Source: Shigella phage sb2. Taken from it: a stretch of DNA of 64,000 bases. The DNA lies in sequence record PQ666540; one strand, 5' to 3'. A model generated the notes under the pieces. That model saw only the letters and a program-made list of their open reading frames with translations, did not search any database and was not told the origin of the DNA. The first letter of the stretch is position 1. The number at the start of each line of letters is the position of its first letter. Shown in pieces: positions 31,871-32,266 of the stretch. The position numbers and the translations under genes are program-made.

Positions 31871-32266
31871 TATAAATTCTCTTTTAAATGAAAATGCAGG
31901 ACTTATTGGCATTGCCTGCGAAAGCCCTCAAGGGGTACTTAGGTTTTGAATATTTACCGACAGGATAACCATAAACCTCGTCAACATACCTTATAGCTCT
32001 TATCTGTTGCACACCGTTAGCTTAAAGGTTCCGGGTTCGATTTCTCGAGGATAAGATATATACTGATGGATATATAGGCCTTGAGGCGTACTCCCGATTA
32101 GCCATCACCTCGGGGTAGCATGCACTTGCCGCTATAAAATAACATTCAAGAGGTACACCGTAAAACTGCCGGGGTCTTAAAACTATAATGATTCGCAAAT
32201 CATTAATCAGACAGTTCGACGGCTCCTCGTTTTAACTTCACACTAAGGCAGTGACTCTCCAATAAA

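Follow-up and report, generated by a model that had tools for sequence, protein, structure and literature searches.

Comparative evidence for a conserved, structured 145-nt RNA between rIII and the gene 30.9 homologue of Shigella phage sb2

The gap between rIII and the gene 30.9 homologue of Shigella phage sb2, a Tequatrovirus, was shown by comparative sequence analysis to hold a predicted, independently folding RNA domain of 145 nucleotides (nt) on the gene strand. The DNA analyzed was a stretch of 64,000 nt (sequence record PQ666540), referred to here as the window, whose early genes lie on the minus strand. The gap (31871-32266) is the longest non-coding run in its vicinity, the neighbouring gaps being of about 110-126 nt; it contains no conserved open reading frame (ORF), and its sequence is 99-99.7% identical to that of Shigella phages KNP5 and pSs-1 and Escherichia phage KNP1. 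An earlier description made from the sequence alone (the sequence-only reading) had reported an ORF-free, hairpin-rich gap of about 350 bp between rIII and a small basic-protein gene, and had proposed a structured non-coding RNA or the decayed remnant of a gene or mobile element among its possible explanations. The gap is real, with a measured length of 396 nt, and for 145 of these nucleotides the structured RNA is strongly supported by covariation and by a kissing loop.

Fifteen representatives of the element were aligned with MAFFT without regard to structure, and the alignment was folded with RNAalifold, which returned 43 pairs, 15 of them with compensatory double changes. A covariance model (R1) was built on the trimmed alignment; it matched the window exactly once and each positive locus once, and gave no match in the T4 region. 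After pooling 26 distinct sequences from at least nine genera, 99.2% of 1143 pair cells were paired, compared with 26-43% in a control in which the partner was slid by 1-3 columns. Changes on both sides of the pair were observed in 21 of the 44 pairs, and none of 500 shuffles reached the observed values. Compensatory pair changes of this type are evidence at the level of RNA, not of DNA. Moreover, 56 of the cells were G-U and only one was A·C, and therefore the RNA strand is the gene (minus) strand.

The predicted fold comprises seven helices (P1, P2, P3, P4, P5, P5a, and P5b) placed around a perfect four-way junction, fully paired and with no unpaired nucleotides, together with a GNRA-capped hairpin and a 5-bp kissing loop (coordinates in Table 1). 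The closing helix P1, which in Shigella phage sb2 can be extended to 31989-32139, showed changes on both sides in four of its five pairs, such as the replacement of G-C by A-U in 11 sequences. In P3 this was the case for 7 of the 13 pairs, with 99.1% of the cells paired. Compensatory pairs were also found in P4 (3/7), P5 (3/7), and P5a (3/4); the U-G pair that closes P4 is conserved in 24 of the 26 sequences and marks the strand. The tetraloop of P5a is GAAA or GUAA in nearly all of the sequences, and the joiner GUGCAAC of the P5 domain is invariant. Overall, more than half of the positions of the RNA are invariant across the aligned sequences, which come from at least eight genera.

Table 1. 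Positions of the structured RNA, its helices and the surrounding features in the window.
Feature	Position	Strand	Description and basis
Core structured RNA	31992-32136	-	145 nt; R1 match, 175 bits, E=1e-38, sole match in window
P1	32131-32135 x 31993-31997	-	closing helix, AU-rich, AUAGC x GCUAU; sequence varies by genus
P2	32128-32130 x 32077-32079	-	GGC x GCC, then invariant internal loop AAGUGCAU / CUCAAG (8/6 nt)
P3	32086-32119	-	arm of 13 bp with two bulges, beyond P2 and internal loop
L3	32102-32106	-	loop GAUGG, kissing arm; pairs with CCAUC of L4 at 32065-32069
P4	32057-32076	-	hairpin, 7 bp, 6-nt loop holding CCAUC, the kissing arm at 32065-32069
P5 domain	31998-32056	-	three-way junction carrying P5a and P5b; 7-bp stem UCUUAUC/GAUAAGA
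P5a	32037-32048	-	UCGA-GAAA-UCGA, 4-bp stem with GNRA tetraloop, within P5 domain
P5b	within 31998-32056	-	ACCCG/CGGUGU with invariant 15-nt loop GAACCUUUAAGCUAA, in P5 domain
Module A	31942-31982	-	about 40 nt; stem GAC-G-AGG / CCU-GUC, loop UUUAUGGUUAU, then tail GUAAAUAUUCAAAACC; also in T4
Module B	31922-31938	-	small G+C hairpin GUACCCCUUGAGGGCUU, self-contained; contains CCCTCAAGGGG of the sequence-only reading
Module C	31896-31919	-	GCAGG/CCUGC stem just upstream of 30.9 ribosome-binding site
AU-rich hairpin	32187-32204	-	AAUGAUU-UGCG-AAUCAUU, then AUAGUUUUAA; 3' of rIII; read from sequence
Mechanical ORF, 42 aa	31884-32012	-	GTG start; ORF list
Mechanical ORF, 58 aa	32022-32198	-	TTG start; ORF list
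rIII	32267-32515	-	lysis-inhibition accessory protein; ORF, phrog_1457; upstream neighbour of gap
Gene 30.9 homologue	31694-31870	-	58-aa Lys/Arg-rich basic protein; ORF, T4 30.9 annotation, phrog_1427; downstream neighbour of gap
gp31	32642-32977	-	ORF, T4 annotation, PHROG
Intrinsic terminator	31669-31690	-	GAGGACUCC-UUCG-GGAGUCCUU plus U-run; strong, after 30.9
Early promoter	31611-31639	-	TTTACA-N17-TAGTAT, directly after terminator, between 30.9 and 30.8
Late-promoter motif	32634-32641	-	TATAAATA; from sequence; equivalent annotated in SA21RB

The kissing loop was found by a scan of the unpaired columns of the alignment, and the same scan recovered no further tertiary helix. It is paired in 99.2% of cells; pair 32-75 occurs as GC in 22, AU in two and UA in two, and pair 38-71 as GC in 24 and AU in one. 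Covariant versions of GAUGG/CCAUC were present as AAUGA/UCAUU in Cronus and EcS1 and as UAUGG/CCAUA in loci L026 and L033. A pairing of J2/3 with the GUGCAAC joiner (UGCA/UGCA) was also considered and was discarded, because only one of the two sides has changed in Karamvirus, EcS1, and Cronus.

The nucleotide identity of the RNA to that of other genera was 82-98%, and 70% for EcS1. It was above the identity of rIII (66-85%) in all nine comparisons and above that of 30.9 (68-86%) in six of the nine; 30.9 exceeded the RNA in L062 and marginally in L063, and the two were about equal in L061.

The alternative that the element encodes a protein, as a 27- or 58-amino-acid (aa) ORF, or is a decayed gene or the remnant of a mobile element, is considered highly improbable. 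The sequence-only reading had found no ORF above about 27 codons, which holds for ATG starts but not for GTG and TTG starts, which open minus-strand frames of 42 and 58 aa. The 27-codon ATG ORF (MANREYASRPIYPSVYILSSRNRTRNL) is contained in the 58-codon one and is kept intact in most lineages, and ORFs are annotated here in ACG-C40, KpV477, and others, as a coding function would predict. However, the 27-aa frame is either shortened to 13-21 aa or broken by a frameshift in five divergent lineages (Cronus, EcL8g, EcS1, L026, and L033), the variation within it consists of substitutions in base-paired couples of the stems and not at third codon positions, and a PHROG search with the 42- and 58-codon ORFs, the latter including the 27-codon ORF, returned no family. 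Short "hypothetical proteins" have been annotated over the RNA on either strand, among them ACG-C40_0208a (L003 1647-1841), kpv477_220 (L004 2415-2558) and others in GenBank records. Because the reading frames are not conserved, these deposited annotations look like spurious gene calls. A remnant would agree with the presence/absence polymorphism of the element and with the short repeats at the ends of the T4 deletion described below. By contrast, the element occurs once per genome and in a constant genomic slot, where a mobile or miniature inverted-repeat element would be expected to show several copies, terminal inverted repeats, target-site duplications, and varied insertion sites; what looks like a terminal "inverted repeat" is in fact the compensatorily changing helix P1. 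These observations, together with conservation above that of the flanking genes and with T4 as the deleted form, led to the rejection of the decayed gene or mobile remnant.

In T4 the spacing between 30.9 and rIII is 244 nt; the window has in addition an uninterrupted block of 152 nt, with the short repeats GAATGT and GTATGT at its two ends and flanks that are about 94% identical to T4. On this comparison, the window is the complete form and T4 the deleted form. The alignment across T-even relatives that had been suggested as a check on the gap revealed both a conserved structured block and a deletion in T4. A BLAST search with the gap matched 1014 phage records, and the coverage reached at least 80% in only 179 of them. 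In T4-type records the alignment was in two pieces that skipped the block, and in phages of Klebsiella, Enterobacter, and Citrobacter the match was to the block only, with 92-96% identity. The block searched alone was found in 407 phage records, with one copy in each, and every named host belongs to the Enterobacterales. The slot is the same in annotated records of eight further genera, one per genus (Jiaodavirus, Kanagawavirus, Moonvirus, Roskildevirus, Karamvirus, Kagamiyamavirus, Marfavirus, and Dhakavirus), each of which has the block between rIII and its 30.9 homologue on the strand of these genes.

The RNA was detected in 15 of 40 IMG/VR loci anchored on rIII. In these 15 loci it lies 9-134 nt downstream of the rIII stop codon and upstream of 30.9, on the same strand and 78-155 nt from its start codon. 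None of the remaining 25 loci gave an R1 match at default filters, and when 15 of them were scanned again with the filters off for weak or degenerate copies, nothing scored above 10 bits. T2 and T6, like T4, lack the RNA. At the same junctions, T2-type phages carry an unrelated hairpin of 44 nt (L091, which is T2, at about 11465-11512; also L037, L043, L048, and L052), whose stem CAGA/UCUG covaries with CAGC/GCUG and whose loop, AAAAGGUUA, shares GGUUAUC with a small hairpin of the gap, module A, described below. T4 and T6 have nothing at this junction. Since the T2-type hairpin occupies the same junctions as the RNA and T4 and T6 are empty there, the junction has at least three "alleles". Judged from this distribution, the RNA is an optional cassette.

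In Dhakavirus JS10 (L025) the RNA is 98.6% identical to that of the window and the surrounding spacer about 95%, compared with only 68% for 30.9 and 85% for rIII. Because the identity of the RNA and spacer is far above that of the adjacent genes, this suggests that the spacer has been exchanged between genera by recombination. In more distant T4-like phages, only a few bases separate rIII from the next gene, which is either 30.9-like (L068, 2700-2900) or an unrelated one encoding about 110 aa (L067, L069, L070, L072, and L073). As rIII abuts the next gene in these phages, the long hairpin-filled spacer seems to be confined to the enterobacterial T-even clade.

When IMG/VR, JGI metagenomes, and GTDB were scanned for patterns of the element, only T4-like phages with the same context were found, apart from three chance matches (L018, L019, and L030), and nothing came from bacterial genomes. 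The core 20-mer and a two-block pattern were absent from 185,579 GTDB genomes, and blastn against 5,426 E. coli genomes and 72,556 plasmids gave no similar sequence.

The element was then compared with known RNAs. A search of Rfam 15 (4227 covariance models, E<=10) gave no match to the element, whether the window, five other genera, or the 161 nt alone were searched, and ARAGORN found no tRNA or tmRNA over the whole window. Keyword searches of the literature turned up no description of the RNA, and its sequence was absent from the papers searched. The RNA is therefore a new family, without a homologue in Rfam or in the literature searched; its general kind is already known, namely conserved structured phage RNAs without an assigned role. 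Two resemblances to RNAs of E. coli MG1655 were rejected: an 8-mer shared with tmRNA PK1, for which 322 of 500 shuffles were as good, and a 10-mer shared with RNase P J11/12 (GUGCAACAGA), for which 20 of 500 shuffles were as good and which is not significant after multiple looks.

The RNAs rnaC and rnaD of T4 (the species 1 and 2 RNAs of the tRNA cluster) are produced from a longer transcript and are dispensable. The present element resembles them as a phage RNA of comparable size (about 120-140 nt in their case) on the early-gene strand and without a promoter of its own. It differs in lying at another locus, in a window without tRNA genes, in showing no relationship of sequence or structure to them, and in being absent from T4. 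Homology was discarded after R1, run with the filters off on T4 69000-75000, gave a best score of 9.8 bits that did not fall on rnaC or rnaD.

A scan of the gene strand of the gap detected no sigma-70-type promoter and no intrinsic terminator. Because the gap lacks both and a terminator stands after 30.9, the RNA is placed inside a rIII-RNA-30.9 transcription unit. In T4, transcription of rIII starts from early, middle, and late promoters (PMC9409239). The terminator-promoter pair beyond 30.9 (31611-31690) fits the definition of the PeSL cassettes (PMC4122927) and is annotated in phage SA21RB; the matches to the Rfam families "Atu_C8" and "Phe_leader" at these positions were below threshold and correspond to the terminator only. 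PeSL cassettes of T4-type phages combine a stem-loop terminator with an early promoter and mediate modular shuffling (PMC2839356, PMC4122927), the promoter being defined as TTTACW-N17-TAYWAT directly after the terminator-like stem-loop (PMC4122927). Like them, the RNA occupies an intergenic site of T4-type phages in which short conserved modules are gained, lost, and reordered among relatives. Unlike them, it has neither a terminator nor a promoter of this kind, and no PeSL was found in 31871-32266.

Outside the RNA, the gap is a patchwork of short, conserved hairpins common to T4, whose order relative to the RNA varies by genus. Module A, with a conserved GGUUAUC in its loop, was found by nhmmer in 34 of the 40 rIII loci, and its stem was paired in 84.6% of cells, compared with 26-50% in slid controls. 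In the window it lies 3' of the RNA. Five genera have it on that side, and Jiaodavirus has it on the 5' side. Module B, which T4 and other genera also conserve, stands upstream of the RNA in Karamvirus and Kagamiyamavirus. Neither module is a repeated regulatory cassette, each being present in a single copy in the 64 kb. Module C is identical in T4; in Jiaodavirus, Moonvirus, and Kanagawavirus a longer stem, GGGAGC...GCUCCC, takes its place. The AU-rich hairpin next to rIII is conserved in T4, T2, and other Tequatrovirus members; it failed the terminator scan and, from its sequence, looks like a weak terminator or a stabilizer 3' of rIII.

The motifs quoted in the sequence-only reading fall within these elements. 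The positions given for CCCTCAAGGGG (31925-31935), GCAGG (31896-31900), and CCTGC (31915-31919) were exact, and that of CCTTGAGG was one base off (32079-32086). The long-range pairing proposed between 31925-31935 and 32079-32086 did not survive: the partners belong to different modules, CCTTGAGG being J3/2 plus the P2 strand of the 145-nt RNA, and T4 keeps one without the other. GCAGG and CCTGC do form a genuine local stem, which lies outside the RNA. The TTCGA-containing motif, located as GGTTCGA within 32032-32043, was considered as a tRNA T-loop and rejected, since it is on the opposite strand, varies (TCGAA, TCGGA, and TCAGA), forms part of the covarying GNRA hairpin and was negative with ARAGORN.

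Of the genes that border the gap, rIII differs from that of T4 by one nucleotide across the aligned coding region, and neither the rIII nor the 30.9 product matched a Pfam family. An in-frame upstream ATG would give a 72-aa form of 30.9 (31694-31912, minus strand), and the annotations of T6 and ACG-C40 have this longer form; the added segment runs into module C and lacks conservation in other genera. The likely product is the 58-aa form of the T4 annotation.

As to its function, the RNA is tentatively proposed, with a confidence a little short of even, to be a self-contained, probably excised accessory RNA that acts in trans. It would be co-transcribed with rIII and 30.9, and cleavage in its AU-rich flanks might release it from the mRNA, in the way that T4 tRNAs and rnaC/rnaD are released from longer transcripts. 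Its compact tertiary fold would bind a single specific partner, which may be a protein of the host or of the phage or else a small ligand, and its role would be that of a ribonucleoprotein component or a decoy, not of a classical riboswitch. Action in trans is preferred because the leader is unchanged on precise deletion of the element, because its position relative to the other hairpins varies by genus and because no expression platform travels along with it, as well as because it is distributed in the patchy manner of accessory host-interaction genes. RIII is reported to bind ribosomal protein S1 at the RNA-binding domains of the latter (PMC9409239), and for this reason S1, RIII, and the basic gp30.9 are natural partner candidates, on the basis of adjacency only.

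Several points weigh against this proposal. The minimum free energy of folding is not beyond that of shuffles (z-score of -1.0 over the gap as a whole and of -0.96 over its core), and because it is so unexceptional the sequence alone proves nothing and the evidence must be comparative; the gap is thus hairpin-rich at no more than chance level in thermodynamic terms, but does hold conserved structure according to the comparative data. The alignments used for the pair counts (A5 and A8) had been fitted to R1, and this makes the structure look better, although the independent MAFFT/RNAalifold alignment agrees with it. The RNA always lies in the 5' leader of 30.9 and on the same strand, as expected of a cis-regulator, and P1, being weak and AU-rich, looks more like a switching helix than like part of a stable excised RNA. 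Antisense targets were found neither in the window, where nothing was above chance, nor in E. coli genomes (no match at E<=10). With regard to a base-pairing small RNA, the element has no flanking promoter or terminator and shows no complementarity above chance in the window. Finally, the transcription, processing, and stability of the RNA are inferred.

The main rival, which is regarded as rather unlikely, is a cis-acting riboswitch or protein-binding leader, that is, an aptamer in the 5' untranslated region of 30.9 through which binding of a metabolite or of the 30.9 protein would alter 30.9 translation, Rho access, or RNase cleavage. The constant position described above agrees with this rival, and so does the presence of a long untranslated spacer that would otherwise be exposed to Rho or RNases, as is an issue in T4. 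The build is also that of an aptamer: like the purine and lysine riboswitch aptamers, the element has a conserved, junction-centred multi-helix fold with invariant unpaired junction and loop nucleotides, a distal kissing loop and a weak, variable P1, and it is located in a 5' leader. It differs from those riboswitches in that its four-way junction has no unpaired nucleotides, in that no Rfam riboswitch model matches it, and in that it lacks a conserved expression platform: no terminator follows the element, the sequence between it and the 30.9 start is genus-specific, and module A separates the RNA from 30.9 in only some genera, preceding the RNA in others. Moreover, and unlike in riboswitch systems, T4, T2, and T6 retain an unchanged leader and 30.9 although the element has been lost, so that the leader works in its absence.

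A self-cleaving ribozyme of a new class, which would cut the rIII-30.9 transcript and uncouple the fates of the two messages, is given a low probability. The compact, ribozyme-sized fold, with its invariant unpaired nucleotides, and the intercistronic site devoid of transcription signals of its own would suit it. In its perfect four-way junction and in the joining of adjacent arms side by side by a tertiary contact, the element recalls the natural four-way-junction form of the hairpin ribozyme. However, the contact is a Watson-Crick kissing loop and not a docking of loop A with loop B, and the conserved loop sequences of that ribozyme are absent. No Rfam match was obtained for the known self-cleaving classes (hammerhead, twister, twister-sister, pistol, hatchet, hairpin, HDV, glmS, and VS), no cleavage site could be identified from the sequence, and many relatives do without the element. 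Little credence is also given to a passive structural insulator, which would stabilize the 3' end of rIII or block the entry of Rho or RNases into the untranslated spacer. Such a role would be in keeping with a gap full of short hairpins that are conserved, namely modules A, B, and C and the one next to rIII, and with the known vulnerability of untranslated early RNA in T4. By contrast, a stabilizer would need no invariant loops, covarying kissing loop or GNRA tetraloop, nor an identity that exceeds that of the neighbouring genes in most comparisons.

The conservation level of the RNA, its invariant junctions and loops and its covarying kissing loop are together the signature of RNAs with a specific action, be it on a ligand, in catalysis or on a protein, and its patchy, cassette-like distribution is typical of factors that tune the interaction between phage and host. 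It is possible, though on balance not probable, that the RNA is a new riboswitch or ribozyme class, with a ligand pocket or catalytic core, or a decoy for a conserved enterobacterial factor such as S1; in any of these cases it would define a new class. The analysis provides a covariance model, exact coordinates, and a correction to the annotation of these genomes, some 400 of which have been deposited with the RNA unannotated or mis-annotated as small hypothetical proteins, despite the thorough study of T-even phages. Tequatroviruses with and without the RNA are natural, isogenic-like comparators, and the element is relevant to the phages of Klebsiella, Escherichia, Shigella, and Enterobacter in therapeutic use. 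If the RNA does represent such a new class or a decoy, T-even-type phages would carry it as an optional cassette that escaped notice for decades, T2, T4, and T6 all being without it.

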